Below the pieces are notes generated by a model. That model saw only the letters and a program-made list of their open reading frames with translations, searched no databases and had not been told where the DNA came from. Source: Tubulanus polymorphus (Eukaryota > Animalia > Nemertea). From it: a DNA stretch of 64,000 bases. The stretch lies in assembly GCF_964204645.1 (NCBI RefSeq), contig NC_134027.1:992001-1056000 (forward strand). The letters are read 5' to 3'. A program made the position numbers and the translations under genes. Each line of letters opens with the position of its first letter. Within the stretch, counting starts at the first letter, position 1. Shown here one piece after another: positions 6,335 through 58,220 of this stretch.

Positions 6335-8813
6335 CTAGTTTAGTTTTTTGGTGGGTGTTTTCAAGAATCCGATACGTCTGAGATATCTGACTATAAACGG
6401 TGTTGAGGTTAGAGTGATCGCTATTCGTACTGGAGCGAATACTTTATGAACAGCGTACGCTACGAGGAACGTACTCGCTCCGGCTGCTAGTTTAGACTCC
6501 AGAAACGACTGACCAACTCCGAGTTGAGCGAGGATTCCGACTACATCTACACCGCTGAAATATAATCAAAACATAACACAATATTTAAATAATACTCATT
6601 TGAAATGACATCAAAAACCTATAGTATATCATCCCTGGGAATATTTTGAAGACCCAGTCACACTAAGTTCTAGAACCAGTTCCAGAGGTCTTGAGCCAGC
6701 TCCCTGGACCCAGTCACACTAAGTTCTGGAACCAGTTCCAGAGGTCTTGAGCCAGCTCCCTGGACCCAGTCACACTAAGTTCTGGAACCAGTTCCAGAGG
6801 TCTTGAGCCAGCTCCCTGGACCCAGTCACACTAAGTTCTGGAACCAGTTCCAGAGGTCTTGAGCCAGCTCCCTGGACCCAGTCACACTAAGTTCTGGAAC
6901 CAGTTCCAGAGGTCTTGAGCCAGCTCCCTGGACCCAGTCACACTAAGTTCTGGAACCAGTTCCAGAGGTCTTGAGCCAGCTCCCTGGACCCAGTCACATT
7001 AAGTTCTGGAACCAGTTCCAGAGGTCTTGAGCCAGCTCCCTGGATCTGAAGTGAATTCATCAGTTCTGGAACCAGTACAGTCGATGGTTAAATTTAACTC
7101 ACAACTTTGAAAATGCGCTGATTTTTAACTGGAGAACCTGTGGAACTGTTGTATGGGTCTTTAAGTGAACAACTGCTTATACCGGGGAGTGGAGATTATG
7201 CTGTGAGGAGGGGGCACGAGTGGAGATTATGCCAGAAGAGGGGCATGAGTGGAGATAATGCTGTGGAGAGGGGAGGGGCTTGAGTGGAGATAATGCTGTG
7301 GAGAGGGGAGGGGCGTGAGTGGAGATAATGCTGTGGAGAGGGGAGGGGCGTGAGTGGAGATAATGCTGTGGAGAGGGGAGGGGCGTGAGTGGAGATAATG
7401 CTGTGGAGAGGGGAGGGGCGTGAGTGGAGATAATGCTGTGGAGAGGGGAGGGGCGTGAGTGGAGATAATGCTGTGGAGAGGGGAGGGGCGTGAGTGGAGA
7501 TAATGCTGTGGAGAGGGGAGGGGCGTGAGTGGAGATAATGCTGTGGAGAGGGGAGGGGCGTGAGTGGAGATAATGCTGTGGAGAGGGGAGGGGCGTGAGT
7601 GGAGATAATGCTGTGGAGAGGGGAGGGGCGTGAATGGAGGAGGGGCATTGTCTCACCTGTAAACTAAACCATAGAAACCTCCAAGAGACATTAACGAAAT
7701 TCCAACATGGAAAACAACGACAGTCGAACCGTAATCTTTAATCGCTCGCTGTAACTTCTGTCGTTGAGACAACGTTGTCACCTCTTCACTTTCTTCCTTC
7801 TTCACCTCTTCAGTTTTCCTCTTCATTTTGAACTCTTCAGCCGCTTGCCTGATCTCGTCGTCTTGGTGTTCGAACAGCTGAGCGAGAGTCTTCTTACCGC
7901 TCTGATAATCGTCCAGTAACTGATCACAACTCGAGAATCCGAAACGATTACAATTCTGCAGCCAGATTTTAAACAATTCCGGGCTGTCACCTTGGATACC
8001 TTGCGGAGAGAGGGTTACTTTACCGTGGCGTCGTAAACTGACGAGGTTATCACCCATCTGACCTCCCTGTAAACCCTGAACCGACGTATCGGATAATGCC
8101 TGCTGATAATACCCCGCGACGACCTTCAACTCTTTCTCTTGAGCGTCGAATAACTCTTTCAAGGTCGTGCGGCCCTCACGTAGATTCGCGATAGCTTCGT
8201 CGCATTTCGATAAACCGAGATTTTCGCACGTTTTTAGCCAGACGCGGAATTCCTCGGTTTCAGTCGCCGCAGCCTGCTCCACACTCGTCACGCTCTTCCT
8301 GTTCCATGCCGATGTCGAGTATTTTCGATACGGATGGTTGGAGGTCTGATTTTCGGCGACGTATTTTTGCGATTGGTTTGTGCCACCCCCGGGCATGTTT
8401 AGATGAGTAGGTGCCGTGCTGTCCGGCTGGTATGGTTCCGGTACCTGACTCTGCATACAGCTATGTAAACTTATCCCTTGAGTTTGTAGATTATAAGCTT
8501 CAGCCTCGGAACTTTCTTCCGGCGTCATCGTCGCGGTTTCGTCGACTCCGGCGCCATCTGTCGAGGATTCCTCACGTTCAGCGATGTCGTTTTGAATTTC
8601 TTTTGCTCGGTCGGAGGCGAAAGCGTGTTCACCCTGAAACCCTTCGATATCTGAAGTGGTTTTTTCGCTGTGGTACAAGAACCCAGTTGTCGTATACCGT
8701 AGAATCTGTTGTTGTTGTTGTTGTTGGTTCTGTTTACAAGAAGTGACACCACAAAAAACGACCCTTCTCAACATCGGAGCCGTCAAACTCATCGTTACAC
8801 GATTTACCATCAT
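6335..8813 (-). CDS. FAM210B: FAM210B-like (DUF1279) mitochondrial membrane protein with long N-terminal extension; exons 8813-7657 and 6554-6335
   Basis: C-terminal LSQRQKLQRAIKDYGSTVVVFHVGISLMSLGGFYGLVYS|GVDVVGILAQLG...AAGASTFLVAYAVHKVFAPVRIAITLTSTPFIVRYLRRIG is the DUF1279/FAM210B pattern. Phase-consistent donor (7656) and acceptor (6555). Arg-rich, acid-free N-terminus resembles a mitochondrial presequence. Start taken as ATG 8813. Confidence 0.9.
6651..7042. repeat. Intronic minisatellite, 56-bp unit x7
   Basis: gacccagtcacactaagttctggaaccagttccagaggtcttgagccagctccctg, near-perfect copies. Confidence 0.97.
7186..7647. repeat. G-rich intronic minisatellite, 35-bp unit, about 13 copies
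   Basis: gagtggagataatgctgtggagaggggaggggcgt repeated up to the exon 1 splice donor. Confidence 0.97.
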
Positions 8814-25936: not shown

Positions 25937-28900
25937 ATGTCTTACGTGGATATTAATAGTTACGTATTAGAGGATATTGATTGGGAATCTGATGGAGTTA
26001 AAGCAGTTTTAGGTAGGTTCAATTTCATCCCTCCGTTTATTTCACTGGTATTCATTCTAAATTAGAAACCCCCAAACCTCTCTCATCCCTCCATTCTCTC
26101 TCCTCTTTTTCCTGTACACAATTTTAAGCATCATATAGGCCTACGCAGTGAGTAGTGGCCAGTTATTGAACCCTCCATGGATATGTGCACATATTATAAA
26201 TGTTTGCTAACGGGATTTTAAATTTTCAATATAATTATCATTTATTGTTTAGTGATTGATTTCCTGTGATTCGCACAAAGACAGTCGTCTCTCATTCTTG
26301 CGTTGACTTGACAACTCTCTCCTGCGAGATCAGCTTGTAGTTCATGTGTACATCGCAAAATATTGATTCCAGTTAGTCTAATAATATTGAAATTCATTGA
26401 TTCCTGCTGAGTTTATGGATCCGAAGGAAATGTTGGCTTTGAATGAATCTATCGGTGATACCAAAAATACTGGATACTGTTTCATGGATGTGCGGGCAAA
26501 ATAATCCCTGGGAATGTTTTCAAATCAGTCAGTTATTGCCATGGTTTCTCATTGTTACTATAATGGTAGTCGATGCGTAAAGATTTATTTCCATGGATGA
26601 TAATTGATGTGGTCTCTAAGTTCGAGAAAATTCTGCGTCCATTAAAAGACAAAGAATTTTATTTTTTTCGTAGAAAAAGGAATTTTTCTCGTACTTAGAA
26701 AAAATTGACGAATCGCTGACGTCATCCTTTCATTATATTGAGCTTTAAAAAATCAGTATGATGATAAACGCTAAAATAGAATGATACCTCGTTTCTCCTA
26801 ATCGGTCGGGGGTCACTTCTATAGCAGCCAGCTCAGCAGAAATGAGAAACAAGGTATCAATTTTCTTTTAGCCCAAACTAATGCTTGTAAATTGGTAGTT
26901 CTCATCTGAAAATAAAATGTCTTCGAAGATTCTTTAAAAGTTTTCTAAATAAAGAGACTTCAGCAACAAGTTTTTGCAGAATTAAACAAGTTATTATTCT
27001 CCCTCTTATCTGTCGATTGCAGCCAAGAAAAAACCGAAAGCGAAATATGGAAAACTCTCAGAGAAATTACGTAAGAATATTCCTGAGGAGACGCTGTGCG
27101 CAATGTTCTGCGGGGGTAAAACGTGTAAATACTGCGACCCACCGGGATATTATACCGACGAACAGATGACTATTAAAGGTCTCTATTCGAGTTGGTGAGT
27201 TATAAAAACATTTCATACGAGAATCTCTGAGCTTGATTTATAACTGTCTAAGTTATGATTTGACTGATGTCTCGAGTTGTTAGATTTGTATTAGAACTGA
27301 AGCTGGTCTTAGAATGGTCTTAAATCTAGGCATTGGATGCGGACCAGTTGCATAGTCATGGCTTAGACTTAAGACCAGTCTAACACCAACATAGTTCTAT
27401 AGCTAATCTAACCACTTAAGACCAGTCTTAAGATTTAAGATCACTTTTGGACTAAGTCGCGACTGTGCAACTGGCCCCAGGATGCTGTAGATTCTTATGT
27501 AGTCTCAGCACCTGCACTTCAGTTTCAGCGCCTCCTCTATAAATAGAATCTAATAGTGGACAGGTGATAATTTGAAAGTTATTTCTGAATTGCCCGTTTG
27601 TATTATTGTCATGGATACCGTGTCACCTCCAGTTCAGTTTCAGCGCCTGCAGTTCAGTTTCAGCGCCTGCAGTTCAGTTTCAGCACCTGTAGTTCAGTTT
27701 CAGCGCCTCCTCTATAAATAGAACAGAGTAAACTTACATTTTTATCATCATCGCACGTGTATCGTTATGAATTATATCCATGTGCGTTACCGTGGTTACG
27801 TGTAATCGGATCAATAAAATCTAATTAATTGCGACACAACAAGTGAGAATAGAGGAAGTTCCCGGGACTGGGTGGCACCACTTACCTGGAATAGTCAGGG
27901 AAATTTCTTTTCTTTGATAAAGTCGGGCAAAAAAGCTAAAATTCAGGGAAATTTATTTCGAAATCGCGCATAAAATCAAACAGTTTCGGTTTATGTTGGA
28001 TGTTGTTGATTGGACTCAGAGCAGATCAAGTCAGGGAAAAACGTGTATATCCGGGAAAAAACAAGTCAAATATAAGTGGCCCCGAGTTCAACTTGGGCAA
28101 CTCTATGTCAACTATCTGAGGCCCGTTCCATAGTCATGGCTTAGACAAAGGCCAAATACAAACTTAGTTCTATAGCCACATGAACAACTTTAGACCAGTT
28201 TTAAGATTAAAGACCACTTTTGGTCTTAAGTCTTTACTATGGAACCGGCCTCTGATGGTTAACTTTTGAGCTACTGGACCAAGGACATTCGCGCATATTT
28301 CATTAAAAAGGCCCCAGGTTTTTTTTTCAAAATCCCGGTAAATTCAGAGTGTTAAAACGTGTGGTTGATTTTTTCAGGGTGACTGAGAATATTTTGGCGA
28401 TGTCGCGACCGAGTACGAGATTAATGAAAGAATATGATATCATTAAACAGTTTAAAGAGTAAGTGAAACATTCATGAAACACTTTGATCCCGAGATGTTT
28501 CCTGAAGCTAAAATGTTTATTCAACGTTTCGACTAGGCCTATATCCTAACATCCTCCCACGTCAGGGATTCGAACCTGATGGCATCGCTATTCTCAGCCA
28601 CGGTACGAACCCCTGCCACACTAGACCGGGTGCGCAGGTACATGCGCAGCTTTGCTGCACGAAAACTTGCGGCACCAATCAGATTGCTCCTAAGCTGCGC
28701 GTGTAGCTGCGCACTCGGTCTCAAAGGTCTCACTCAGATTCAAAGTTAAATAGATAATTTCGAATTAAATCTATGAAGCTATGCACCAGTGATTTTCGTT
28801 AATTTGAATCTTAAAAACGTTTTTATGTGAATTTTGTTTTTGTTTTTTTCACGTAGAGCTGGAATCAGTTCAATAATCAATCTACAAACTCCTGGTGAAC

Positions 28901-31900
28901 ATTTTAACTGCGGTGACCCTTTAGAACTATCCGGATTCTCTTATAACATCGAGGACTTCATGGACGAAGGAAGTCAGTGGTTTACATCTGGAAATTACAT
29001 TCTTTTTTTATAAAAATAGAAAAGATTTATGATTTTATTTTCTGTTCTATTTTTCAGTTTTCTTCTACAATTTTGGTTGGTAAGTATTTTACTTACTGAA
29101 AACCGCCGTTGTTTAGAGAATTAACGACTATTTGCCGAACAAGTCAAATAAAACTTCGGGGGCTTGTTGCACAGTCATGACTTCAGTCCAAAAGTGGTCT
29201 TAAATCATAAGACCGGTCTTGAATTCTTAGATTGGCTATACAACTAAGTTGGTCTTAGACTAGTCTTAAGTCTAAGCCATGACTATGCAACCAGCCCCAG
29301 GATTTGTTTCCACAGTTGAGAGTTGGAGTTGACTTTTGAGTTGAAATGAGTTAACTCACAACTGTGGAACGGATCCCTGATCCAAGAAGACTCATTAAGA
29401 ATATTTGTGGATTTGTAGGCCTGATTACGGAGTAGCTAATCCTGATACATTGCTCGATATGGTTAGAGTCATGCAGTTCGCTGTTTCTGAAGGCAAAGTA
29501 GCGATTCATTGTCACGCCGGTCTAGGTGAGTTACCACCTACCACCTGAAACGTGAAATCAGCAGTAACTTGTAATGGGTGGAGAAATTCAATAATATTGA
29601 AATTACTTTAGATAAACTCAGTGTCAAATATTGCCAGTCTTTTGCTGAATGAAATTAGATTTTTGTCAGTGTTGCAAGATTACCTTTCTTTTTAAAGTTG
29701 ATAATTTTGTCTTGACAACCAATCTCTTGAAATCAGATTGGAAATGATTATCTTTGGAATTGAACAACTAAGAAAATATGTAAGTTTGTTCTTTTTAGGA
29801 TCATGGGTTCTACAACTAAAGACTAAAACTCAAGATTAATGTTATTTGTCCTATTATCAAAATCTCACCAAAAATGGTTTTGATTTAAGGAGATTTTCTC
29901 TTCATGTCAGAGATATAAACAGATTGGGTTTAATCTAGAGATGACTGACTGTTTCTGGGACATTGAGGTTGGCTCTTAAAAGTGCCGTTTAAGAATCGAG
30001 TTGAATCGTGTTTTGATTCAGATGCGTGATTCACTGATATGAGGTGAATCAGTAGATTCATTGATGAGTATTTCGCCGAGATGTCGTTTTAACATGTGAA
30101 TTTCGGTAGCTTTATTCTGCGCGTACAAATAGAAAGCATCTTTCGTACTGGCGAGTGACAACCATTGAATCCTCGCCGAGTACCCGGTGTTCAATTCCTT
30201 CATACGTTCATAACGTTCACTGAACTGATGAACTTTCCTCTCCAGTATCGCTATTTGACGAGCTGCTCGAAGAAACTTCATTTCAACTCGTTGTAAACTC
30301 ATAACTGTATCATCGACATTCATCTGGTCTATAGAATTCTGTTGTAGGAAGATGGAGGAGCTGCTCTTGTCGTTAACGGTTTGACGTTCCATTTTACAAT
30401 GTTGAAAATATTCATAAATCACGGATATTTATACATCAACCTCAAACACTAATTAGTGAACTCATTAATTAAATACTTTTATTCGAAAACATCAAAGAAT
30501 CTTTAATCTTTTATTATGTTGTTTTCGAAAAGATCAAAGGAAAATTGTGATCAGTAATTAATTTGTAATTAGTGAAGATCAAAGGAGACCAAAAGGATCA
30601 CGTGTTAATTAGTTAAGGTGATCATATTCACTGTTTGATCAAAGGGTTGTACTTAATTAATTACTAGTAACTGATCATGACCAGAATACTATTCATTATT
30701 CAAAGATCAAAGGATACTGATTTATTTGTAACAGGTGTTGTAAATATTGATGACTGATCAACACAATATTTTGAAAAGAAATAATGCGTTTACCAGTAAT
30801 TAATGTTTGAGGTTGCTGTATAAATATCCATAGTGTCTGTTAATATCTCTGATACAACAGCAAAATCTCCTCAATCAAAACCATCTTAGGTCAGGTTTTG
30901 ATATAAAAGGCATTTTGTCTAAATATGTTAGACCGATGGCAGTTTTAAGTTGTAGGAACCAAAACCCACATTTTCAAGAACAAACCTATGTTTACCCAAG
31001 ATTTCCAGTTGATTTAAGAGAGTTTATTTGAAATCTGAATTTTTACTTTCCGTCCGAAACATTAGAAAATAACTGAGTTTGGATTTTGTCTTAACTGATT
31101 CTTACGGATTGTTTCTTTATAAAAGTTGGTTGTCTATTATCAAAGATGGTTAAATTCTTGTACACGAGTTTGAAGAATTACGAACATAATTTTGCTTAAA
31201 GCTGGTAAAATATGTAGCGAGATTTTGAAAATTGAATTTTGTGATATTTCAGGACGGACGGGAGTTTTGATAGCGGTTTATTTGATATTCAATAATCGTA
31301 TGTCCGCAGGTGAAGCTATTCAATACATTCGAACAAAAAGGTAGAAATATCGATTTCAAAGATTTGATTATCGATTGATGGATCGAACTATGATTTGTTT
31401 ATGAATCTGTTGTATCATTTTTAGGAAAGGGGCAATACAAACAAAGAGACAAATAGATGCGATAAAAGCTTATGGAATTTATTTAAAACCATTTCGGATA
31501 ATTTATTCCGAGTAAGTATCTGAACTGGCTCTCGTTCCTGATGGTGCTGTAAGTTTTTGAAACTTTAGTCATGAAATCGACAGTCCATTATTCAACCATG
31601 GCATATTTCACGAATCAAGGTTACAATGCCAGAAGTAAGTTCAACAGCCCAACAGCAGTCTTAGATAATGACCCTAAGTCTAACTAAAGTCTAAAAGTGG
31701 TCTTAGATATTTAGACTGGTCTTGAGTTGTTTTATTGGTTCTAGAACTAAGTTGGTCTCAAATCTAAAGCCTAGACTGTGCAACTTGGCTCCAGGGGCTG
31801 GTTGCATAGTCATGGCTTAGACTTAAGACCAGTCTAAGACCAACTTAGTTCTATAGCCAATCTAACAACTTGAGACCAGTCATAAGATTTAAGACCACTT

Positions 31901-34423
31901 TTGGACTTAAGTCACGACTGTGCAACTGGCCCCAGATCTAGTGTCAGAATCCAGACTGATGCGATGAGTCCCTATTTTGACCGTGTGACGAATTAACAAA
32001 TGAAATTGTTGTTATTGTTTTTAGTTGTGCTACTGATGATTTTACGTTGTACCAGTATCTAATGAGACAGAAACACATGTTACATGGATTTGAAGCTCGA
32101 CGGCTGAAACACATTCCAAAGGTACGGTCGATCAGAACAGCCGACACTCTCACACGTGAACAATATGAATCCAAAACGTCTTCATTTTTTATCTCCTAGA
32201 TTTGTATAAATTAGGTTATAAGCTTCAGTTTTATAATACATCGATCTCCAGTTTATTTCTCATCTTGATAATGATTATTGATTTTTTTTTTTCGACAGAT
32301 AATCTACGTCTGCTGCGAACGTCTGCTCGAACTGGCTCATAGAGGGCGCCGGTTGAAATCTCACGCTAACGACAGCGATACGTTGAAACTGATTCGAGAG
32401 GTGGCTCCGAAAGCTTTCAACAATTCGCCGTCGTCGGGGGCGACGATGATGAACGGGTTAAAACGCGCTCAGAGCTGCGATGACAAACTCAGCTCGGCTG
32501 ACTCCGATAATAACTCATTGTTACCGTTACCGACGGCGACGGGACGCGCCGGTTCGACGAACGATATTTATAAACTATCGGCGAATTTGACCTTGAACGA
32601 CGAAAGCGATACCGGGTCGAGTTTTGGCGATGATAAAAACACGGACGAGGATGGATTACGTACGGATGACGACGGCGATGAATCTAGCGATCCGGAATCG
32701 GCAGGAATCGAGTCGGTGATTCGTAGTTTAGTTACCGTGAATCATACCGATGACGTTAAACAAATAGTGCACGATTATAAAGTAAGTTTCATCCGATTCA
32801 GAAACAGGACCCGGTTCCATGACTACGGGACTGGTTACCAAACCTCTGCATCCCGGTTCATCATCGTAGAAACAATTGTAAACTGTAAACCGGAGTTTAA
32901 TTATCTGTTGTAGATCTCTTTAAACACGTGTGACAGCGCATGGCAGACGCTATCTCATGAAAACAATCCGTCCGTTTTGAGTTTACTAATCTGGGATTGG
33001 TTAGATCAACTACGGGTAAGTCTTAAACATTTCAACGGTTTACAAGTTTTAGACATTAGCTCGGTTTCGATCGACTTTAGTCACCGTGTATATTTCAATT
33101 GAGAAAAAACCTAGCTGTACAATTGAAAAGGAGTTTAGTTTGATGTTTTGACTCAATGAGCCATTTTTAAACGGATTTAAGTTCGAAATCATTGATGAGG
33201 TATTCTAGTTGCTACCAGGAATTACTTAGTAACTTTACTGTAACTTTTACTGTTCTTGCGTATCAAATCAATTCTGAAAATGGCGTATATTGTTGTCGAA
33301 ATGTCACGACTTTCTTTCTTAGTTCGGACATTTTTCAGGACTTTTCAAACTCGGGATGAAATGATACTCCGTGAAGGAAGCGATATTTTATTTTAAAGAT
33401 ATTCTGATTTGTTTTTTAGGAACCGATTATCAGTTTTCAGGATCTGAATCTAATTTCTGCTCACGTCGATGAACCATTAGCCGGAATTCAACGTTTAGAA
33501 AGAGTAAGTATCCACCACCAGGTGGAGCCACTGTACAGTTTCGCGTCCGGTTCAGGTAGACATTCTGTTTATTTGTATTGACCAATAAACAACGCTCGGT
33601 ATTTCCACTTAGAAGTTGAAATTATCTTTTGTTTCGGCACCGAGTAGAAATCTAGGGACTAAAGCCGTTGCGTCACAAGTTGGGGGGTAAGTCTGTTGCG
33701 ATGTGATTTCCAGCGACTGTGTGCGACTAGTTGCTGCCAGTTGCAAGAGCGCATAGATCGGTTGCGACGGTTGCGTCGCAGAAAGTAGAACATGTGCGAC
33801 TCATTGCGACTGGCGTCGCTGCCAGTCGCAACCTGCGCTGGTAGTTGCAAAGTAGCGTAGGTCGGTGAGTCGTTGCGACGTGATCGTCGCGAGCCGTCGC
33901 AAGGCCGACCTACGCCCGGCTTAATTTCATCAATTCATTGATGCTGTTCTATACAAAATGACCCCTGGAGCTTCATTATCAAGTGTTTGTGAACAACAAA
34001 TAATATATTAAATCTCTAAAAGAAACCAAAAAGAATGTAGAACTTGTCCAAGCAAAGATTTTGAAACGTCTCTTCAAATACGTTAAAAAAAGATTCTCAT
34101 AAATGATGTTTGTTTTGTTTCAGGCGAGTCAACATACGACTGAATATCTAGTCAACTTCGTAACACGGTTATTGCCCCTCGACGAGGAGCACGAGGATTC
34201 CATCATGATGCGATTAATGTCCGTTCTAACGCAACAGAACGTCTACGGTAACCGCGGCGACGCGTTCCACTGTCCATCGCTGACCAAATCGAGCCGCGTT
34301 ATGAAATCTGAAATGCAACAGAAAACTATCAAGTTTTTCTACCTGCTCCTCGACGCTCTCGAGACGAAATTACAACAGCGTAAAATGAAACGTCGCGCTT
34401 CGCTTTCAGAAACTAATCAATAA
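25937..34423 (+). CDS. PTPDC1: Protein tyrosine phosphatase domain-containing protein 1; exons 25937-26012, 27023-27194, 28378-28458, 28857-28972, 29058-29079, 29419-29525, 31253-31340, 31425-31511, 32025-32121, 32299-32781, 32914-33015, 33420-33503, 34124-34423
   Basis: Spliced motifs CAMFCGGKTCKY, IKGLYSSWVTENILAMSRPS, IINLQTPGEH..CG.PLE.SGFSY, FFYNFGWPDYGVA, LDMVRVMQFAVSEGKVAIHCHAGLGRTGVLIA (CX5R loop), YLMRQKHMLHGFEARRLKHIPKIIYVCC match PTPDC1. First exon less certain. Confidence 0.95.
27341..27477. mobile_element. ~140-bp palindromic MITE family (Harbinger-like), copy
   Basis: gaccagttgcatagtcatggcttagacttaagacc ... gactgtgcaactggccc; same family as 31795-31932. Confidence 0.8.
28120..28250. 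mobile_element. Same ~140-bp MITE family, diverged copy
   Basis: ggcccgttccatagtcatggcttagac ... actatggaaccggcc. Confidence 0.7.
28545..28700 (-). repeat. Dispersed repeat (SINE-like, B-box GTTCGAATCC); inverted relative at ~2905-3035
   Basis: Shared gcaatctgattggtgc.gcaagttttc.tgcag ... accgtggct.aga ... cgatgccatcaggtt.g.atccctg in both copies. Confidence 0.55.
29160..29298. mobile_element. Same ~140-bp MITE family, inverted copy
   Basis: gggcttgttgcacagtcatgac ... catgactatgcaaccagccc. Confidence 0.8.
29971..29986 (-). promoter_or_regulatory. Histone-type 3' stem-loop (one stem mismatch), copy 1
   Basis: Minus strand aaac-GGCACT-TTTA-AGAGCC-aacc versus consensus GGYYCT-TTTH-AGRRCC; 31 nt after the stop of the 124-aa ORF. 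Confidence 0.65.
30018..30392 (-). CDS. Intronless 124-aa uncharacterised helical/coiled-coil protein, copy 1 (antisense in PTPDC1 intron 6)
   Basis: ATG in AAAATGG context at 30392, TATAAATA at 30433-30426, identical protein encoded by the second copy at 38089-38463. Confidence 0.75.
   Translation of the reverse strand: MERQTVNDKSSSSIFLQQNSIDQMNVDDTVMSLQRVEMKFLRAARQIAILERKVHQFSERYERMKELNTGYSARIQWLSLASTKDAFYLYAQNKATEIHMLKRHLGEILINESTDSPHISESRI
30426..30713 (-). promoter_or_regulatory. TATA box plus cluster of five TCF/LEF-type sites and TAATTA motifs, copy 1
   Basis: ATCAAAG-containing sites starting at 30489, 30531, 30576, 30636, 30704 (three are AGATCAAAGG); TATA at 30426-30433. Confidence 0.7.
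31795..31932. mobile_element. ~140-bp MITE, best-preserved copy, CAG target-site duplication; a degenerate copy abuts it (~31655-31790)
   Basis: cag|gggctggttgcatagtcatggctta ... taagtcacgactgtgcaactggccc|cag. Confidence 0.85.
33663..33920. mobile_element. GC-rich MITE with TAA target-site duplication (Tourist/Harbinger-like)
   Basis: taa|agccgttgcgt ... acgcccggct|taa; internal ttgcgac/gtcgca subrepeats; GC island in an AT-rich intron. Confidence 0.7.
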
Positions 34424-36889: not shown

Positions 36890-37930
36890 ATGTCGGTGGT
36901 AAATGAAACATCAGATCCTGCGGCGCTCATCTGTTGTGGTCAGTTATGCGACAGTTCGAGTGCGATCTTCACGTACAGGACGATCATGGCATTTACACGT
37001 GCCACACTTTATACAATCGGTATCATCTCAAACTGTCTGGCGTTTATCGTTATTCATCTGATGAAACTTAGAGGTAGCAGTATTCTATATTTGGAGATGT
37101 TGGCTGTAGCTGATTGTGTAAACTGTCTGACCGGTTTGTTCGGACGCGAGTTAAATATGCTTTCTAAACGCTTTCCGCTCGAATATATTCGCTACAATCA
37201 CATTTATCAACAGTTTTATCGTTATGTTTATCTTTACGTGGACGCCATCTTCCAAATGACGACGAGCACCAGTTCGTGGCTACTGTTCGCATTAAGTTTA
37301 GACCGTTATGTAGCTATTAGATTCCCACTGTCTGCTAGGAATATTTGCACGATTCGAAATGCATTTCGTGTTTCTCTCGCGACTTGGGTTCTAACTTTTA
37401 TTTTCGATTTACCGACAATTTGGGATCTAGAAACATACTTTACGATGCCCGATCAGCCTTGTAAATATGTTCTGCCAAGGAAACTCTTGCTTCAGAATAA
37501 AGAATACGCTTTGTATTACGATTTTGTATTCGGTAAAGTAGTGTTGAAGTTTATTCCGGGTTTGATTGTTTTAGGTTGTAATGTACATATGGCGGCTTTA
37601 GTTCGGTTGGCGGCTCGTCTGAGACACAAACTTCAACAAATCGACGTCAAAGATGAACTTTCGACAAATAGTAAACAAGGACGACAAATAACTCTGACAA
37701 TATTAGCTTTGAATGTAGTATTTATGGTTGAATATGGGATGTCTTTAATAAACACATTTATACCGGCGGTTTTACCCGATGGATACACATATCGCCCGTA
37801 TCATTCGGGGCAGTTGTTACACGCTATCAATGCTATGATAAATTTATTCGTTTATTTAGGAATTCGAAGAGGTTTTGGAGAAACTCTAGTTTGGTTTTTG
37901 AGTTGTAAACGTTTAGGAAACCGAGTGTAG
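36890..37930 (+). CDS. Single-exon rhodopsin-family (class A) GPCR, FMRFamide-receptor-like / invertebrate chemoreceptor-like, 346 aa
   Basis: Seven hydrophobic segments; GIISN (TM1), LAVAD (TM2), LSLDRYVAIRFP (TM3), FIPG (TM5), INAMINLFVY (TM7); N-glycosylation sequon NET near the N-terminus. Confidence 0.9.
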   Translation: MSVVNETSDPAALICCGQLCDSSSAIFTYRTIMAFTRATLYTIGIISNCLAFIVIHLMKLRGSSILYLEMLAVADCVNCLTGLFGRELNMLSKRFPLEYIRYNHIYQQFYRYVYLYVDAIFQMTTSTSSWLLFALSLDRYVAIRFPLSARNICTIRNAFRVSLATWVLTFIFDLPTIWDLETYFTMPDQPCKYVLPRKLLLQNKEYALYYDFVFGKVVLKFIPGLIVLGCNVHMAALVRLAARLRHKLQQIDVKDELSTNSKQGRQITLTILALNVVFMVEYGMSLINTFIPAVLPDGYTYRPYHSGQLLHAINAMINLFVYLGIRRGFGETLVWFLSCKRLGNRV

Positions 37931-38088
37931 TTGATGAACAAGACAAAAAGCCATTCAAAAACTGAATTTGGGGAGTGGAAGAGATATAAACAGATTGGGT
38001 TTAATCTAGAGATGACTGACTGTTTCTGGGACATTGAGGTTGGCTCTTAAAAGTGCCGTTTAAGAATCGAGTTGAATCGTGTTTTGAT

Positions 38089-38463
38089 TCAGATGCGTGA
38101 TTCACTGATATGAGGTGAATCAGTAGATTCATTGATGAGTATTTCGCCGAGATGTCGTTTTAACATGTGAATTTCGGTAGCTTTATTCTGCGCGTACAAA
38201 TAGAAAGCATCTTTCGTACTGGCGAGTGACAACCATTGAATCCTCGCCGAGTACCCAGTGTTCAATTCCTTCATACGTTCATAACGTTCACTGAACTGAT
38301 GAACTTTCCTCTCCAGTATCGCTATTTGACGAGCTGCTCGAAGAAACTTCATTTCAACTCGTTGTAAACTCATAACTGTATCATCGACATTCATCTGGTC
38401 TATAGAATTCTGTTGTAGGAAGATGGAGGAGCTGCTCTTGTCGTTAACGGTTTGACGTTCCAT
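38089..38463 (-). CDS. Intronless 124-aa uncharacterised protein, copy 2
   Basis: Protein identical to copy 1; only one synonymous DNA difference seen by eye (38257 vs 30186); same TATA, TCF cluster (38560-38786) and stem-loop (38042-38057). Confidence 0.75.
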   Translation of the reverse strand: MERQTVNDKSSSSIFLQQNSIDQMNVDDTVMSLQRVEMKFLRAARQIAILERKVHQFSERYERMKELNTGYSARIQWLSLASTKDAFYLYAQNKATEIHMLKRHLGEILINESTDSPHISESRI

Positions 38464-38889
38464 TTTACAATGTTGAAAATATTCATAAATCACGGATATT
38501 TATACATCAACCTCAAACACTAATTACTGAACTCATTAATTAAATACTTTTATTCGAAAACATCAAAGAATCTTTAATCTTTTATTCTGTTGTTTTCGAA
38601 AAGATCAAAGGAAAATTGTGATCAGTAATTAATTAGTAATTAGTGAAGATCAAAGGAGAGTCAAGTGATCACCTGTTAATTAGTTAAGGTGATGGTGCTC
38701 ACTATTTGATCAAAGAGTTTTAATTAATTAATTGTTAGTTACTGATCACATGACCAGAAAATTATTAATAATATAAAGATCAAAGGATACTGATTTATTT
38801 GTAGCAGGTGTTGTAAAATATTGATGACGGATAAACACAATATTTTGAAAAGAAATAATTGCAGTAATAGTTACAACAGATGTATCTTA

Positions 38890-41800
38890 TCTGTTCAAGG
38901 CTTGTGTCGTTTATGAAGCGAAGATTTTGAAATATCAATAGCTACTTTTCTGAATTTATCATTTGTCGCGCAATACACGATAAAATTTACTGATGAATCG
39001 ATGATAGAAAATCCTAACGCTACTTGTCTCATACCTAGAAAACCATGGATACCTGATCTACAGTAAATATTGCTAACCTGTGGTAAAAACCAAACCCTTC
39101 ACAAATAATAAACAATAAAACTACTGATAAAACCATCCTTAAGACCCTCATTTCCCTTCTAGACGATTCATCAGTTACATCGAGCTGTGAACGTCGAGTA
39201 ACCCGACGGTAAAATATCACCGAAATAAGAATTATATTGATACATATCAAAATACAAATTGGAAAAATAGTAGTAAGATACAGGAATAGATATATCCCAG
39301 ACTTGTAACTGGTGTTGTCGAACATCTCATAAACTGTTTCTTCTCTGCCTATTTGACAAAATAATTCTATTTTCGCTTATTTGACAAAACGTCCCGTGAA
39401 TTGAAGAAATACCGTAATCAGTTTTGCAATGACGATTCTATTCTTTACACAGATTTTTATGACATATTATGGTAATGAAATCAATTTTGCATGATACAAT
39501 TTATTATCCTATTATGAAATTGCTGTAGGGTTTAAATCTATTTACGTATTGACATCGAGAGCAAAAGCAGGCTATAATATATTTCATTAGAGTGAAAAAG
39601 AAATCGCTACTTAATTTCAGATACATTTAGACGATGTACTTGTTTTTAGACGATGTACTTGTTTTTAGACGATGTACTTGTTTTTAGAAGATATACTTGT
39701 TTTTAGACGATGTACTTGTTTTGTTTTGCTTTGATTTGACTCTTAGTAGTTTTACGGGACTATCTCTCATAAGATGTGGCACTGCTAAAAGGCCCGGGAT
39801 CGCCTGGACATAAACTAAACTCCTTTTAGCTCGGTACCGTTCAAATGGAAAGCTCTTCTACTCATAGATTCTCAACTCAGAATCCAGTCTACTCAAAAAA
39901 TGTAATTTCGTCTACCAGGTCCTGGCTTTTAGCTAGACTGGTTGCCTGTCCAATTCAGCGCTAAATGCATTCGCAGTCGAATACTGAAGGTAGAGACCGG
40001 CACCCAGTCTAGGCTTCTAGCAAATCATTACCCGCATGCCACAGTAGGAATATGTGTTGTCTGGTTAGTTCACATGTTCACCGCCAACGTTCTTTAGAGT
40101 GGCAGCACTTGACGGTCGATAGAGAAGTAGATAGAAAATCAATGTTGAGCCTCTGAAATCCACTTAAAAACCCAAACACATCAAGTTTCAAGAAGAAAAC
40201 TGTCTTTATTAATTACAGAACTGATGAAGAGTTGTAGATAGAGGAGCTGCATAAACCTGGCGTTGAGTCAGTTAAACGTTAAGACAGATGTATTGTACTT
40301 TATAGGTTAATTTTTGTAACCATGAAAAAATATCAAACTTGACATTTCTTTACTTTTATCATCTACTGACAAGCCACAATCTGGAGACTGCATGGCACCC
40401 AACACGACACATGTGATGTTCAATTATGGCAAAAAACAACTCTTTTTTTCATAAAACTTGGTACTTTATTCGTCTTTCTCTGATATCACAAAATGTTTTT
40501 TTTTAATGTGAATATTTTATGTTATTATTTATACTCAATTTTTTTAAATATCTACAACATATTTTCTACAGTAGCGCGGAGCAGTATATAACAGTAGACC
40601 AGAACGAATTGATTCAAGACTTATTTAAGATATGAAAATGCAAGTCCTGGTCAGTCAATTATCATCGACATCATTATCATTCGGGAAAATACCGTATTCA
40701 TTCATATCACTGAAAAAAACAAAAAAAAGACACTTCGCAGGAATTATTCAAAACTCAACCAGTTGCACGGTTCAAAAACGTTCTTATATCTTCAGATTAG
40801 CCTTATTAGTTACTAGATTGGTTATAGAACTAAGATGAGCTTAGAATGGTCTTCTCGTTATTAGATTGGTTATAGAACTAAATATAATCAGAATTAGAAT
40901 TAGATTATTAAACAATGTAAGGAAAAAACATCGAATTAAACACAATTAAATCCAAACACAAGTTGAATTTTCACTTGACTAGCACTCAATTTCAGCGTAA
41001 CTTATCGAAGCCTTTCAAAAAACTTCCTAGAATTTTACTCCTGACGTCCAAGCGTTGTACTATAATTATCAAGAAGATCTCACAGAGTCTCCTGATGAAA
41101 CATTGCTCATCCCAGTTCCACAGTCAAGTTGGATTCCAAATTAGTTGGTTGCTAATATTCAACTACAAGTCAAACTTGCTTAAGTCGCCATAGGTGTGAC
41201 AATAATTTTGTTGAGGACTTATCAAAATTACAGTTTACACTTGTAAATTGGGGCTAAAAAGAGGATTTCAGTAATGCGATAACAACTTAAGTGATATCAC
41301 TGATTGCCATTTTCGAAGCCAAATAGGGAAATATAGATGAGAACGGATCATGATATACGGCCAATATGAGGGGCAATTTATGAATACCAAACGACGGCCA
41401 CGTAAAAATTGAGAAAAATCACCACAAAAGCTTAACAGTGAAATAAACACCATCGCCCAAACTGATATCAACTTCTTTGGAAATTTACGAGATTTTATAG
41501 GAAACAATACGACGATTAACCGCTCTAGACTGAGCAGTACAGTGCACCAGTTACGCGTCATCTGAAAAATATAGAAAAACGGCACAGCGACCGAGATAAA
41601 AATCCAACCGCAATGCCAATCATTTCTGCGGAACAAAATATCACCCAAAACGGCGTAAATGTACGCAGTTCTCAGCGGATACAGAATGAATGTAGCGATC
41701 ATAAACAAAAGATCGTTTACAGCGAGAATTTTGATGAGAAAATAAACATCTGATTTAAATCGTTTTAGAACAAATAGCGTGAATGCGTTGGAATATCAAA

Positions 41801-43851: not shown

Positions 43852-44647
43852 CGGAGAAATTGGTTGGCATCTCTGGAACTACGATAACTCGCGGTAACAA
43901 ACACTGAAAGTCCCGCTTTGACAAAGAAATTGTTCGGCATCTCTGGAACTACCGATAACTCGCGGTAACAAACACTGAAAGTCATGATTTGACGGAGAAA
44001 ATGTTCAGCATCTCTGGAACTACCGATAACTCGCGGTAACAATCACTGAAAGTCCCGATTTGACGGAGAAATTGTTCGGCATCTCTGGAACTACGATAAC
44101 TCGCGGTAACAAACACTGAAAGTCATGATTTGACAGAGAAATTGTTCGGCATCTCTGGAACTACGATAACTCGCGGTAACAAACACTGAAAGTCATGATT
44201 TGACGGAGAAATTGGTCGGCATCTCTGGAACTACGATAACTCGCGGTAACAAACACTGAAAGTCCCGAATTGACGGAGAAATTGGTCGGCATCTCTGGAA
44301 CTGCGCTAACTCGCGGTAACAAACACTGAAAGTCCCGATTTGATGGAAAAATTGTTCGGCATTTCTGGAACTACGATAACTCACGGTAACAAACACTGAA
44401 AGTCCCGATTTGATGGAAAAATTGGTCGGCATCTCTGGAACTACGATAACTCGCGGTAACAAACACTGAAAGTCATGATTTGACAGAGAAATTGGTCGGC
44501 ATCTCTGGAACTACGATAACTCGTGGTAACAAACACTGAAAGTCCCGATTTGACAGGGAAATTGGTCGGCATCTCTGGAACTACGATAACTCGCGGTAAC
44601 AATCACTGAAAGTCCCGATTTGATGGAGAAATTGGTCGGCATCTCTG
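43852..44647. repeat. Minisatellite, 70-bp unit, about 11 copies
   Basis: tcgcggtaac recurs at 44031, 44101, 44171 ... 44591. Confidence 0.97.
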
Positions 44648-45965
44648 ATTTGATCTTTTCATGTCATCTGATATTCTACAGCCAACCAAAAACTCAATAC
44701 TACAATGACAAAACACAAAATATGAATAATGATATCATTTTTGAGACTCTTCTTAAAAATAAATTTCAATTATACCTGATTTTTAGTCGATTCAGACTCC
44801 TGACTCATTTCTTCATGAGGAAATTGATCTGCATCATCGGTATCGTTTCCATTTTGATATCTGGTATTGTGTGACGAATAACTCAATACTAACTACAACA
44901 ACAATGTACTAAATATAAACCATGATTTTCATTCATAAGACTCTTCATAAAAACAAAATTCGACTAATTTCAATTTTACCTGATTTATAGTCAATTCAGA
45001 TTCATGACTCGGACCTTGAGGAATTTGCTCAACACTTTGTGAACTCTGATGTTTTCCTTTCCTCTGGTTTTGCACGTCACTTACAACAACAACAAACAGT
45101 CAACTGGCTACAACAAAAATACATAAAATAAAAGTAGTAATCATCTTCATTGAGTCGACTGTTCCTGCGAAGAAATTCAAGTTAAATTTTACCTGATTCA
45201 TAGTCAATCTAAACTCATGACTTAAAAGAGAAATTGCTCAGAACCTCAGCAACTGCTCGTATCTTCTTGAACTTTCGGTTTGATGTGGAGATCCCCCAAG
45301 AATATCTCCGATTTCAGCATACAAACACTGAATGAAGTCCTTATTTGACAGGGAAATTGGTCGGCATCTCTGATCTGATCTTTTCCTGTCGTCTGATATT
45401 CTACGGCCAACCACAAGCTCAATACATGTGCTACAATGTGAAAACACAAAATATAAATAATGAATTAAGACTCTTCTTAAAAAGAAACATAAAAAATAAA
45501 TTACAATTATACCTGATTTATAGTCAATTCAGATTCATGACTCGGACCTTGATGAATTTGCTCAACACTTTGTGAACTCTGATGTTTCCTTTCCTCTGGT
45601 TTTGAGCGTCTCTAACAACAACAGTCCACTGGCTACAACAAAAATACATAAAATAAATGTAACCATCTTCTTTAAGTCGACTGTTCCTGCAAAGAAGTTC
45701 ATATCAAGTACAACATTAAGTACAATTTTACCTGATTTATAGTCAATTCAGACTTATGACACCTTAAATATTTCTCAACAATAACTGGAACGATCCTGAA
45801 TGTTTCCTGTCGATCGTTTGGTATTTTGTACTTGCCGACCAAATCAATACACGCTACAACAGGGAAATATGAAATACATGTAATACTAACTTACTGTCCT
45901 AGTTGAGAACATTATTATCTACAAATAAATTCATAGCAATTTATACTATACCTGATTTATAGTCT
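44620..45965 (-). repeat. Repeated exon-intron-like units, including a local duplication (44620-45240 vs 45340-45770)
   Basis: Recurrent acctgatttatagtc (minus-strand ...aaatcag|gt donor) and ctacaa (ttgtag| acceptor). Confidence 0.65.
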
Positions 45966-46261: not shown

Positions 46262-49200
46262 TTGATATATATTACAATATATACACAGAACCAACACCAG
46301 CGACATTTCAATGATTCAACCACCACAAAGCTATCGATGGATAGCTGTTTTGATTATTTATACATTTAAAACGTTAAGTCGCAAAAAGGACGATCAGGAA
46401 ACATAATCAGTCCCAATTCACCGACATATATTACAATATATACACAGAACCAACACCAGCGACATTTCAATGATTCAACCACCACAAAGCTATCGATGGA
46501 TAGCTGTTTTGATTATTTATACATTTAAAACGTTAAGTCGCAATAAGGACGATCAGGAAACATAATCAATCCCAAATCACCGACATATATTCAGAACCAA
46601 CACCAGCGACATTTCAATGATTTAACTAACCACCACAAAGCTATCGATGGATAGCTGTTTGAATATTTATACATTTAAAACGTAAAGTCGTAATGAGGAT
46701 GATCAGGAAACATAATCAGTCCCAATTCACCGACATATATTACAATATATACACAGAACCAACACCAGCGACATTTCAATGATTCAACAACCACAAAGCT
46801 ATCGATGGATAGCTGTTTTGAATATTTATACATTTAAAGCGTTAAGTCGCAATAAGGACGATCAGGAAACATAATCAGTCCCAATTAACTGATATATATT
46901 ACAATATATACACTGAACCAACACCAGCGACATTTCAATGATTCAACCACCACAAAGCTATCGATGGATAGCTGTTTTGAATATTTATACATTTAAAATG
47001 TTAAGTCGTAATGAGGACAATCAGGAAACATAATCAGTCCCAATTAACTGATATATATTACAATATCTACACAGAACCAACACCAGCTACATTTCAATGA
47101 TTCAACCACCACAAAGCTATCGAGGGATAGCTGTTTTGAATATTTATACATTTAAAACGTAAAGTCGTAATGAGGACGATCAGGAAACATAATCAATCCC
47201 AATTCACTGAAATATATTACAATATATACACAGAACCAACACCAGCGACATTTCAATGATTCAACCACCACAAAGCTATCGATGGATAGCTGTTTTGAAT
47301 ATTTATACATATTAAACGTTAAGTCGCAATAAGGACGATCAGGAAACATAATCAATCCCAAATCACCGACATATATTCAGAACCAACACCAGCGACATTT
47401 CAATGATTTAACTAACCACCACAAAGCTATCGATGGATAGCTGTTTGAATATTTATACATTTAAAACGTAAAGTCGTAATGAGGATGATCAGGAAACATA
47501 ATCAGTCCCAATTCACCGACATATATTACAATATATACACAGAACCAACACCAGCGACATTTCAATGATTCAACAACCACAAAGCTATCGATGGATAGCT
47601 GTTTTGAATATTTATACATTTAAAGCGTTAAGTCGCAATAAGGACGATCAGGAAACATAATCAGTCCCAATTAACTGATATATATTACAATATATACACA
47701 GAACCAACACCAGCCACATTTCAATGATTCAACCACCACAAAGCTATCAATGGATAGCTGTTTTGAATATTTATACATTTAAAACGTTAAGTCGCAATAA
47801 GGACGATCAGGAAACATAATCAATCCCAAATCACCGACATATATTCAGAACCAACACCAGCGACATTTCAATGATTCAACCACCACAAAGCTATCGATGG
47901 ATAGCTGTTTTGAATATTTATACATTTAAAACGTTAAGTCGCAATAAGGACGATCAGGAAACATAATCAATCCCAAATCACCGACAAATATTCAGAACGT
48001 TTGAATATTTATACATTTAAAACGTAAAGTCGTAATGAGGATGATCAGGAAACATAATCAATCCCAATTCACTGACATATATTACAATATATACACAGGA
48101 CCAACACCAGCGACAATTCAATGATTCAACCACCACAAAGCTATCGATGGATAGCTGTTTTGAATATTTATACATTTAAAACGTAAAGTCGTAATTAGGA
48201 CGATCAGGAAACTAGTGAATCCCAATTCACCGATACATATTACAATATATATATATATACACAGAACCAACACCAGCGACATTTCAATGATTCAACCACC
48301 ACAAAGCTATCGATGGATAGCTGTTTTGAATATTTATACATTTAAAATGCTAAGTTGTAATGAGGACGATCAGGAAGCATAACTCGCCCAAACTCAATAT
48401 CACCCCATAACAGAGTGTATTAATTAACACGCAGCAGCAAGCTGCATTATTAAAGGAGGTCATCAGTGTTGTAACACACTGACAATTCAGTTTGTTTGTC
48501 ACGTTTCTACATGACAATTGAAGAAGGAAGGAGGAGACTCCTGCACTCAATATCACTCCAAAACAGAGTGTATTAATTAACACCCAGCACCAAGCAGCAG
48601 TATTAAAGGAGGTCATCAGTGTTGTAACACACTGACAATTCAGTTTGTTTGTCACGTTTCTACATGACAGTTGAAGAAGGAAGGAGGAGACTCCTGAACT
48701 CAATATCACCCCTGAACAGAATGTATCAATTAACACGCAGCAGCAAGCAGCAGTATTAAAGGAGGTCATCAGTGTTGTAACACACAGACAATTCAGTTTG
48801 TTTGTCACGTTTCTACATGACAATTGAAGAAGGAAGGAGGAGACTCCTGCACTCAATATTACCCCAAAACAGAGTGTATTAATTAACACCCAGCACCAAG
48901 CAGCAGTATTAAAGGAGGTCATCAGTGTTGTAACAAACTGACAATTCAGTTTGTTTGTCACGTTTCGACATGACAGTTGAAGAAGGAAGGAGGAGACTCC
49001 TGATTTCAATATCACCCCAAAAACAAAGCCAGCAGCAAGCAGCAGTATTAAAGGAGGCCATCAGTGTTGTACCAAACTGACAATTCAGTTTGTTTGTCAC
49101 GTTTCGACCTGACAATTGAAGAAGGAAGGAGGAGACTCCTGAACTCAATATCACCCCAAAACAGAGTGTATTAATTAACACCCAGCAGCAAGCAGCAGTA

Positions 49201-52200
49201 TTAAAGGAGGTCATCAGTGTTGTAACAAACTGACAATTCAGTTTGTTTGTTACGTTTCGACATGACAGTTGAAGAAGGAAGGAGGAGACTCCTGATTTCA
49301 ATATCACCCCAAAAACAAAGCCAGCAGCAAGCAGCAGTATTAAAGGAGGCCACCAGTGTTGTACCAAACTGACAATTCAGTTTGTTTGTCACGTTTCTAC
49401 GTGACAACTGAAGAAGGAAGGAGGAGACTCCTGCACTCAATATCACCCCTGAACAGAATGTATCAATTAACAACCAGCACCAAGCAGCAGTATTAAAGGA
49501 GGCCATCAGTGTTGTAACAAACTGACAATTCAGTTTGTTTGTCACGTTTCTACATGACAGTTGAAGAAGGAAGGAGGAGACTCCTGAACTCAATATTACC
49601 CCAAAACAGAGTGTATTAATTAACACCCAGCAGCAAGCAGCAGTATTAAAGGAGGTCATCAGTGTTGCACCACACTGACAATTTAGTTTGTTTGTCACGT
49701 TTCTACATGACAGTTAATAACCTCCAAGTGCAAGGAACCAAAGTGAAGCTATCAAACAATAGCATCTTTGAGTATAACACTTTTAAAATCCGTAATATAA
49801 TAATAATTTGCTGCTACAATATATACACAGAACCAACACCAGCGACATTTCAATGATTCAACCACCACAAAGCTATCGATGGATAGCTGTTTTGAATATT
49901 TATACATTTAAAACGTAAAGTCGTAATAAGGACGATCAGGAAACATAATCAATCTCAATTCACCGACATATATTACAATATATACACAGAACCAACACCA
50001 GCGACATTTCAATGATTCAACCACCACAAAGCTATCGATGGATAGCTGTTTGAATATTTATACATTTAAAACGTAAAGGCATAATGAGGACGATCAGGAA
50101 ACATAATCAATCTCAATTCACCGACATATATTACAATATATACACAGAACCAACACCAGCGACATTTCAATGATTCAACCACCACAAAGCTATCGATGGA
50201 TAGCTGTTTTGAATATTTATACATTTAAAACGTTCAGTCGCAATAAGGACGATCAGGAAACAAAATCAGTCCAAATTAACTGATATATATTATAATATAT
50301 ACACTGAACCAACACCAGCCACATTTCAATGATTCAGCCACCACAAAGCTATCGATGGATAGCTGTTTTGAATATTTATACATTTAAAACGTTAAGTCGC
50401 AATAAGGACGATCAAGAAACATAATCAGTCCCAATTAACTGATACATATTACAATATATACACTGAACCAACACCAGCGACATTTCAATGATTCAACCAC
50501 CACAAAGCTATCGATGGATAGCTGTTTTGAATATTTATACATTTAATACGTAAAGTCGTAATGAGGACGATCAGGAAACATAACTCGCCCAAACTCAATA
50601 TCACCCCATAACAGAGTGTATTAATTAACACGCAGCAGCAAGCTGCAGTATTAAAGGAGGTCATCAGTGTTGTAACACACTGAAAATTCAGTTTGTTTGT
50701 CACGTTTCTACATGACAGTTGAAGAAGGAAGGAGGAGACTCCTGCACTCAATATCACCCCAAAACAGAGTGTATCAATTAACACCACCAGCAAGCAGCAG
50801 TATTTAAGGAGGCCATCAGTGTTGTAACACACTGACAATTCAGTTTGTTTGTCACGTTTCTACATGACAGTTGAAGAAGGAAGGAGGAGACTCCTGTACT
50901 CAATATCACTCCAAAACAGAGTGTATTAATTAACACCCAGCACCAAGCAGCAGGATTAAAGGAGGTCATCAGTGTTGTAACACACTGATAATTCAGTTTG
51001 TTTGTCACGTTTCTACATGACAGTTGAAGAAGGAAGGAGGAGACTCCTGAACTCAATATCACCCCTGAACAGAATGTATCAATTAACACGCAGCAGCAAG
51101 CAGCAGTATTAAAGGAGGTCATCAGTGTTGTAACACACTGACAATTCAGTTTGTTTGTCACGTTTCTACATGACAATTGAAGCAGGAAAGAGGAGACTCC
51201 TGAACTGAATATCACCCCAAAACAGAGCCAGCAGCAAGCAGCAGTATTTAAGGAGGATGATTTATGATGTTACAATGTTTAAGGTAATTAGTCTTATTGT
51301 AATAATGTTTAATGTAATAATTCAAGAAGTTCAGGGAAGGAGGTAAGAATTAACAAGCACCAGCAACGTGCAGTATTGAAGGAGGCCATCAGTGTTGTAC
51401 TAAACTGACAATTCAGTTTGTTTGTCACGTTTCTACGTGACAACTGAAGAAGGAAGGAGGAGACTCCTGCACTCAATATCACCCCTGAACAGAATGTATC
51501 AATTAACAACCAGCACCAAGCAGCAGTATTAAAGGAGGCCATCAGTGTTGTAACAAACTGACAATTCAGTTTGTTTGTCACGTTTCTACATGACAGTTGA
51601 AGAAGGAAGGAGGAGACTCCTGAACTCAATATTACCCCAAAACAGAGTGTATTAATTAACACCCAGCAGCAAGCAGCAGTATTAAAGGAGGTCATCAGTG
51701 TTGTACCACACTGACAATTTAGTTTGTTTGTCACGTTTCTACATGACAGTTAATAACCTCCAAGTGCAAGGAACCAAAGTGAAGCTATCAAACAATAGCA
51801 TCTTTGAGTATAACACTTTTAAAATCCGTAATATAATAATAATTTGCTGCTACAATATATACACAGAACCAACACCAGCGACATTTCAATGATTCAACCA
51901 CCACAAAGCTATCGATGGATAGCTGTTTGAATATTTATGCATTTAAAACGTAAAGTCGTAATAAGGACGATCAGGAAACATAATGAGTCCCAATTCACCG
52001 ACATATATAACAATATATACAAAGTACCAACACCAGCGACATTTCAATGATTCAACCACCACAAAGCTATCGATGGATAGCTGTTTGAATATTTATACAT
52101 TTAAAACGTAAAGTCGTAATGAGGACGATCAGGAAACATAATCAATCCCAATTCACCGACATATATTACAATATATACACAGAACCAACACCAGCGACAT

Positions 52201-58200: not shown

Positions 58201-58220
58201 TATTAAAGGAGGTCATCAGT
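46262..58220. repeat. Composite higher-order satellite: alternating blocks of a ~159-bp unit (A) and a 153-bp unit (B) with two ~95-bp linkers
   Basis: A blocks ~46262-48385, 49814-50582, 51851-53035, 54038-54645, 56205-57385; B blocks between them. Linker 1 at ~49716, 51752, 53939, 56106; linker 2 at ~51256, 55610. Confidence 0.97.

Follow-up and report, generated by a model that had tools for sequence, protein, structure and literature searches.

The window analysed here, a stretch of 64,000 nucleotides of the nemertean Tubulanus polymorphus (contig NC_134027.1), carries on its minus strand two copies of a small intronless gene, the first of which lies within an intron of a dual-specificity phosphatase gene that we take to be PTPDC1-like. 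The features are as follows, with positions counted from the first letter of the window:

30450..30720, minus strand: upstream cluster of copy 1, with five same-direction CTTTGAT (TCF/LEF-type) sites and seven of eight TAATTA motifs
30433-30426, minus strand: TATA box TATAAATA, 41 nt 5' of the ATG
30392-30018, minus strand: copy 1 ORF, 124 aa, intronless, in a single frame, for a divergent member of a lophotrochozoan helical-hairpin family
29986-29971, minus strand: copy 1 histone-type stem-loop GGCACT-TTTA-AGAGCC, 16 nt, 31 nt past the stop, 5 of 6 pairs
29958-29950, minus strand: copy 1 HDE-like purine-rich 9-mer CCAGAAACA, 12 nt past the stem
29934-29929, minus strand: ATTAAA, perhaps a polyadenylation signal held in reserve, though its occurrence is compatible with chance
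29526..31252, plus strand: phosphatase intron that hosts copy 1 antisense and splits the HCHAGLG/RTG signature
30779..30903, plus strand: inverted partner remnant, copied promoter and TATA box running straight into copied distal 3' flank, with neither ORF nor hairpin
37980..38859, minus strand: whole unit of copy 2, 96 % identical to the copy 1 unit
38463-38089, 38057-38042 and 38029-38021, minus strand: ORF, hairpin and HDE-like element of copy 2, with the same upstream cluster

All elements listed in the original prediction proved exact, namely an intronless ORF of 124 aa behind a TATA box, a hairpin 31 nt past its stop, the purine-rich 9-mer and the ATTAAA; the same arrangement in copy 2, with the hairpin at 38042-38057, was likewise confirmed. 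Three points go beyond that prediction: the antisense, intronic position of copy 1, the numerous homologues of its protein and the clustered TCF sites upstream. Copy 2 repeats the TATA box, ORF, hairpin and 9-mer of copy 1 with a shift of 8071 nt. Between 29909 and 30440, the copies differ at 1 of 532 positions and therefore represent one event rather than two independent ones, the transcribed region having been homogenised between them (compare 32 differences in 345 nt elsewhere in the comparison). The ORF is intact in both, and the sole change within it is synonymous. Both in the window and in the homologous locus L002 described below, one open frame spans the family profile, so that, at the level of DNA, the gene is intronless.

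The inverted remnant upstream of copy 1, whose flank aligns with a score of 133 (shuffled, 56 ± 7), is read as what is left of a former head-to-head pair, the partner gene of which was deleted. Copy 2 is convergent with an intronless GPCR gene that ends at 37930; this gene is of the rhodopsin type (36890-37930), and GPCR-like fragments (39035-39325 and 41268-41702) also lie around copy 2. Read contigs support the junctions of copy 1 in run X1 and both junctions of copy 2 in X2, and the DNA-like runs X1 to X3 show, among the matches listed, more relatives, including an 81 %-identical piece within the ORF and copies with other 3' flanks. One relative covering 29795-30005 has 23 mismatches and 8 gap letters, all of the gaps being outside the hairpin, and one X2 contig has an 11-nt gap at 29980, within the hairpin (depth 34.8 of 64.2), so that the hairpin may be missing or altered in one paralogue or more. 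A fourth run, X4, possibly of RNA, gave no contig over 29380-31520, the host exons included, and therefore carries no information on expression. Copy 2 (at 37980) and another copy in X1 leave the shared 3' flank within 1 nt of the same point (29908-29909), which may mark an edge used repeatedly by a unit that moves or duplicates. In an X2/X3 contig, furthermore, the 3' end with the hairpin region is inverted and joined to the upstream cluster (30028/30687), which is a second deleted head-to-head arrangement, unlike the one in the window. A viral or mobile-element origin of the gene was considered and rejected after no family match was found in viral contigs, phages or plasmids and no terminal repeat or target duplication was identified; the inverted arms that flank the gene are better explained by the deleted partner.

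Taken by itself, the site in the window is suggestive rather than convincing. Hairpins of the form GG..T/TYTN/A..CC occur only at these two places in the 64 kb when both strands are searched, and a third-order Markov model of the window yields cores of this kind, paired at 5 or more of the 6 positions, at a rate of 2.75 per Mb, which corresponds to 0.35 anywhere in the window and to about 3e-4 if the core has to lie no more than 100 nt from a given stop. Simulated cores that also had A/C flanks numbered 0 in 20 Mb, a figure that reflects a flank filter chosen after the site had been seen and one that the 5' flank of the homologue, which ends in T, would fail. In the Rfam search that had been proposed as a check, Histone3 (RF00032) ranks first for the 1-kb region, with 18.5 bits (E 0.046 there, rising to 2.9 across the whole window), yet both this score and that of the homologous hairpin (29.3 bits) lie under the gathering score of 34 bits. 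The 26-mer of the window adopts the expected hairpin fold (-4.0 kcal/mol); of 200 shuffled versions, 13 are equally stable. Both this value and the -5.3 predicted for the homologue fall short of the range of -7 to -10 published for metazoan histone hairpins, which lie at a median of 30 nt past the stop and for which one stem mismatch was tolerated (from portions of the survey bioRxiv 10.64898/2026.10.14.759114).

The A.A mismatch at stem pair 4, to which the original prediction had itself drawn attention, is real, and in window and homologue alike 5 of the 6 pairs form, the same one being disrupted. A second deviation concerns the downstream element of the window, which reads AAACA where the UCUUU box of U7 would pair with AAAGA; measured against this box, which is conserved in U7 (PMC5054213), 4 of 5 positions would pair in the window and 5 of 5 in the homologue. 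The 5' adenines and the second G-C pair, needed by SLBP according to passages in PMC10388802 and PMC3884669, are intact in the window. In window and homologue alike, the hairpin lies 31 nt past the stop, inside the 25-60 nt expected of a histone-type end, and has the 5' adenines, the second G-C pair and the loop U. The ATTAAA, finally, is unremarkable, with 0.13 expected per 60 nt.

A word-based search with the single window protein gave no matches; an exhaustive phmmer search returned 6 (E 4.5e-5 to 6.8e-4), a profile of which recovered 117 of 977 candidates at E<=1e-5, and a 97-row profile recovered 364 of 7999 at the same threshold. Against a profile of 110 homologues, from which the window protein and 16 seed-related rows had been left out, residues 13-116 score 56.7 bits (E 7e-10), in a test that is not fully independent, since the window protein had been among the seven rows of the profile used to gather those homologues. 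A metagenome match from the single-protein scan (L001) was discarded as spurious, its alignment crossing a stop. Named animal members among the matches listed come from bivalves, gastropods and the nemertean Tubulanus, for example Mactra KAL4229368-72, Aplysia XP_035826768 and Tubulanus XP_074640406, and measure about 100-125 aa. One member stems from a transcriptome of the gut parasite Siedleckia and is presumably host-derived, and another (P0264) comes from a bacterial MAG and is annotated as bacterial. Bacterial labels in MAGs (P0264 and CBDHDT010000127.1) show that database labels mislead for this family, and the few members with automatic labels such as ELM1 have no Pfam match that would back them. 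Some homologues derive from transcriptome assemblies, which are usually poly(A)-selected, a point against messages without poly(A). Tandem organisation recurs: five consecutive Mactra loci are 97-99 % identical, and clusters comprise 135 and 102 members. In one branch (P0179, P0180, P0219, P0320, and P0321), proteins of distant gastropods are 90-97 % identical (Aplysia versus Patella, 90 %), a histone-like conservation in a nameless protein.

That the product is not a histone, as had been stated from the outset, is upheld by the lack of any histone match in Pfam at E<=1, by the predicted fold and by membership in an unrelated family. AlphaFold (112 rows) gives a confident two-helix hairpin with helices at 8-65 and 71-114 (pLDDT 83). 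Searches of Pfam, NCBIfam, PDB sequences and the ESM Atlas yielded weak coiled-coil or unrelated matches only, and fold searches returned nothing at E<=0.001, the best match (Z 12.0, generic coiled coils) being below the level that is meaningful for helical models; neither a Pfam model for the family nor a described function was found. Of 111 homologues, 110 have a basic core (median +8) and 77 an acidic tail with a net charge of -3 or lower, a combination that suggests binding to nucleic acid or chromatin. The window protein keeps 12 of the 20 columns conserved at 80 % or more and sits on the third-longest terminal branch of 113. At its turn, 3 residues are deleted and little of the basic stretch is left (net +1 versus a median of +6). 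Profile and predicted fold together place it as a divergent member of a large, nameless, often tandem lophotrochozoan family of basic helical-hairpin proteins.

A profile scan of prokaryotic assemblies led to one contig with a family gene, CBDHDT010000127.1, which is animal DNA binned into a bacterial MAG. It consists of seven tandem 2.14-kb units, each with an intronless family gene and interspersed with 5S rRNA and U1 snRNA genes; no further family loci were found in 400 other assemblies searched, and U7 or histone genes had no match in assembly G001. The locus L002 was picked by protein similarity alone (30 % identity to the window protein over 100 aa) and is the sole homologous DNA locus examined (one of one), so that a hairpin there counts as a prediction borne out. 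Such a hairpin, GGCCCT-TCTA-AGAGCC, is present 31 nt past the stop, the very distance seen in the window, and is followed 11 nt later by CAAGAAAGA; both elements recur in all seven units of the L002-L007 array, which are nevertheless to be counted as one event. Beforehand, the chance of finding a core in this position was about 1e-4 and that of the 9-mer 8e-5. Hence, the proposal that homologues should keep the hairpin at the same position held for the one homologous locus with DNA, where the HDE is kept as well. The two hairpins share 14 of 16 nt, or 20 of 26 in the 26-mer, and are mismatched at the same stem pair (C.A in L002 versus A.A in the window), while identity in the flanks is at background level (6 of 25 just before and 18 of 65 after). 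Within their 11.9-Mb assembly, the seven units are the top 7 of 19 Histone3 matches. A hairpin alone proves nothing, since others of 24-27 bits occur in the same assembly without a family or histone-like ORF and without an HDE (three of three loci inspected). Perfectly paired histone-like hairpins were also seen at L015 (361-376) and L016 (two copies, 31 nt apart); these are non-coding, lack an HDE or evident gene and probably belong to a repeat.

As hairpin, distance and HDE are kept in L002 while the flanks are unrelated, the signal is likely to be a selected family trait. The expected number of cores in the window and the whole-window E-value would still allow for chance resemblance in both loci, and the 19-nt hairpin pattern has 9 chance matches in viral contigs, none of which stands behind a family gene. 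However, the position of the window hairpin directly behind a stop and, above all, its predicted reappearance in L002 at odds of about 1e-4 for the core alone make this explanation very improbable. A different origin of the signal is conceivable in recombination with histone, 5S or snRNA repeats, which would have left it as a passenger without U7 cleavage, at most bound by SLBP in a longer polyadenylated message. The company of the homologue within a 5S-U1 tandem unit, which is typical of histone genes, and the mobile or duplication-prone nature of the window unit lend this some appeal, but the two loci have nothing in common in flanks, promoter or context and yet carry the element equally far from the stop, which is hard to reconcile with it, as is a homologue with a perfect CAAGAAAGA and no AATAAA or ATTAAA in the 270 nt past the stem, and we regard it as improbable.

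The rival that deserves most attention accepts the histone-type ends of the family and holds that the window copies have left the pathway, either as decaying relics polyadenylated at the ATTAAA or as recent pseudogenes. Such a fate would agree with the two deviations of the signal (pair 4 and AAACA), the lowest Rfam score, a very long protein branch, a new type of promoter and neighbours that have been deleted or rearranged. Yet L002 is mismatched at the same pair, hairpin and spacing have outlasted a divergence of the protein to 30 % identity, the ORF has stayed open in both copies with a single, synonymous change, and the ATTAAA is compatible with chance, which together render the loss of the pathway rather unlikely. 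On balance, we lean towards the view that these copies use a histone-type SLBP/U7 message end, at least in part, and consider it likely that the genes of the family make messages whose ends arise by SLBP/U7 cleavage rather than by polyadenylation. The original idea that a non-histone gene may have co-opted this pathway is partly supported, by the non-histone protein and by the hairpin, position and HDE kept in the homologue, but has to be widened from a one-gene event to a family trait.

In detail, SLBP would bind the hairpin, U7 snRNP would pair with the purine-rich element, and CPSF73 would cut about 5 nt past the stem, by analogy with histone mRNAs, resulting in a message without poly(A) that might be translated and cleared like a histone mRNA, with fast turnover. 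Because both signals, hairpin and HDE, are weakened in the window copies, these likely give a mix of stem-loop-ended and ATTAAA-polyadenylated messages, as for H2A.X. The protein itself would likely bind nucleic acid or chromatin, which is the weakest step of the scheme.

Transcription of the window copies seems to be organised differently. The upstream cluster occurs before both copies (30450-30720 and 38520-38790), with CTTTGAT sites at -320, -252, -192, -147 and -105 of which four of five read CCTTTGATC. CCTTTGATC occurs 7 times in the window, always upstream of one copy or the other, and the Poisson probabilities of the cluster are 3e-8 for five CTTTGAT and 5e-9 for eight TAATTA, a motif bound by homeodomains; a repeat check ruled out that the cluster is a tandem repeat. 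Between copies, 0 of 31 differing positions fall within the five TCF sites (P about 0.03), the surrounding DNA being about 9 % different. According to parts of bioRxiv 10.1101/2021.01.15.426889, CCTTTGATC is the TCF site of a synthetic Wnt reporter. No CCAAT box was found within 500 nt, and the coupling to the cell cycle that had originally been envisaged thus finds no support in the promoter, which has a cluster of TCF and homeodomain sites instead. The cluster suggests that Wnt-driven transcription is a better guess than cell-cycle-driven transcription for these copies: a beta-catenin/TCF complex plus a homeodomain factor, rather than a histone promoter, would likely drive them, and the outcome could be a brief burst of message set off by the signal, probably during early embryogenesis. 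At L002, no TCF sites were found in 700 nt of promoter.

Among known systems, replication-dependent histone genes come closest: the window gene resembles them at the 3' end without being one of them. It is likewise intronless, has a TATA box and a short 5' UTR, and carries a 6-bp/4-nt hairpin about 30 nt past the stop, with A/C-rich flanks and a purine-rich element 11-12 nt later; the family shares tandem multicopy arrays with histone genes, and the homologue the linkage to 5S and U1. Unlike histone genes, it encodes a two-helix hairpin protein, pair 4 is mismatched in both loci, the Rfam scores stay under the cut-off, the promoter in the window combines TCF with TAATTA sites and lacks a CCAAT box, and the 3' processing is a prediction. 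A hairpin plus HDE followed by a possible poly(A) hexamer is also a hallmark of the bimorphic H2A.X mRNAs, as outlined in parts of PMC3188798; in contrast to these, the product here is not a histone, and the hexamer is at chance level and absent from the homologue. The promoter recalls TCF and CDX Wnt-responsive elements, in that several CCTTTGATC are interleaved with homeodomain-type sites before the TATA box (bioRxiv 10.1101/2021.01.15.426889, in part), but the palindromes are TAATTA rather than CDX sites, and the cluster, known here from its sequence, is absent from the homologous locus.

The genomic company of the homologue has precedents: 5S and U1 lie within the Hydractinia histone repeat and 5S within bivalve histone repeats (PMC5011920, in part), and Lucina histone genes have the hairpin and, in some cases, purine-rich elements (PMC6210712, in part). 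Portions of PMC6303110 and PMC5054213 describe replication-dependent histone mRNAs as the only known animal protein-coding messages with a stem-loop in place of poly(A). Human SLBP CLIP, however, also yields regions without stem-loops (bioRxiv 10.64898/2026.08.17.745202, in part), and some non-histone mRNAs lack poly(A) and are processed in an unknown way (PMC3188798, in the part cited above). The literature search found no non-histone family with a histone-type end, although subscription papers and bioRxiv supplements, which lay outside it, could hold one; no paper found names the six family accessions, and five family motifs are absent from four supplementary files of PMC7441323, a subset of that source.

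If the family indeed ends its messages in this way, a conserved non-histone family would break the histone-only rule for stem-loop message ends, and the mismatch shared at pair 4 would offer a natural test of the requirements of SLBP and U7. It would also raise the suspicion that, for molluscs and worms, embryo and single-cell atlases that rely on poly(A) lack an abundant class of genes. A much broader picture is possible, though doubtful, and is offered tentatively: besides the histones themselves, lophotrochozoans might have another ancient user of the histone mRNA pathway, namely a basic helical-hairpin protein that binds chromatin or nucleic acid. Its genes would be arranged as histone genes are, comprising tandem stem-loop arrays that supply early embryos in bulk and an ultra-conserved variant class, and would have been overlooked because poly(A) sequencing misses them. 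The fast-evolving branch seen here would then have come under the control of beta-catenin/TCF, which would link Wnt signalling with a pulse of poly(A)-free message.

The remainder of the window is of a mixed character. A FAM210-like gene lies at 7653-8813, and short palindromic, MITE-like repeats occupy introns at 27347-27453, 28120-28265, 29146-29302 and 31683-31936. Further along, a 70-nt tandem array extends over 43852-44723, and a long satellite-like array over 48000-58500 is the source of spurious ORFs.
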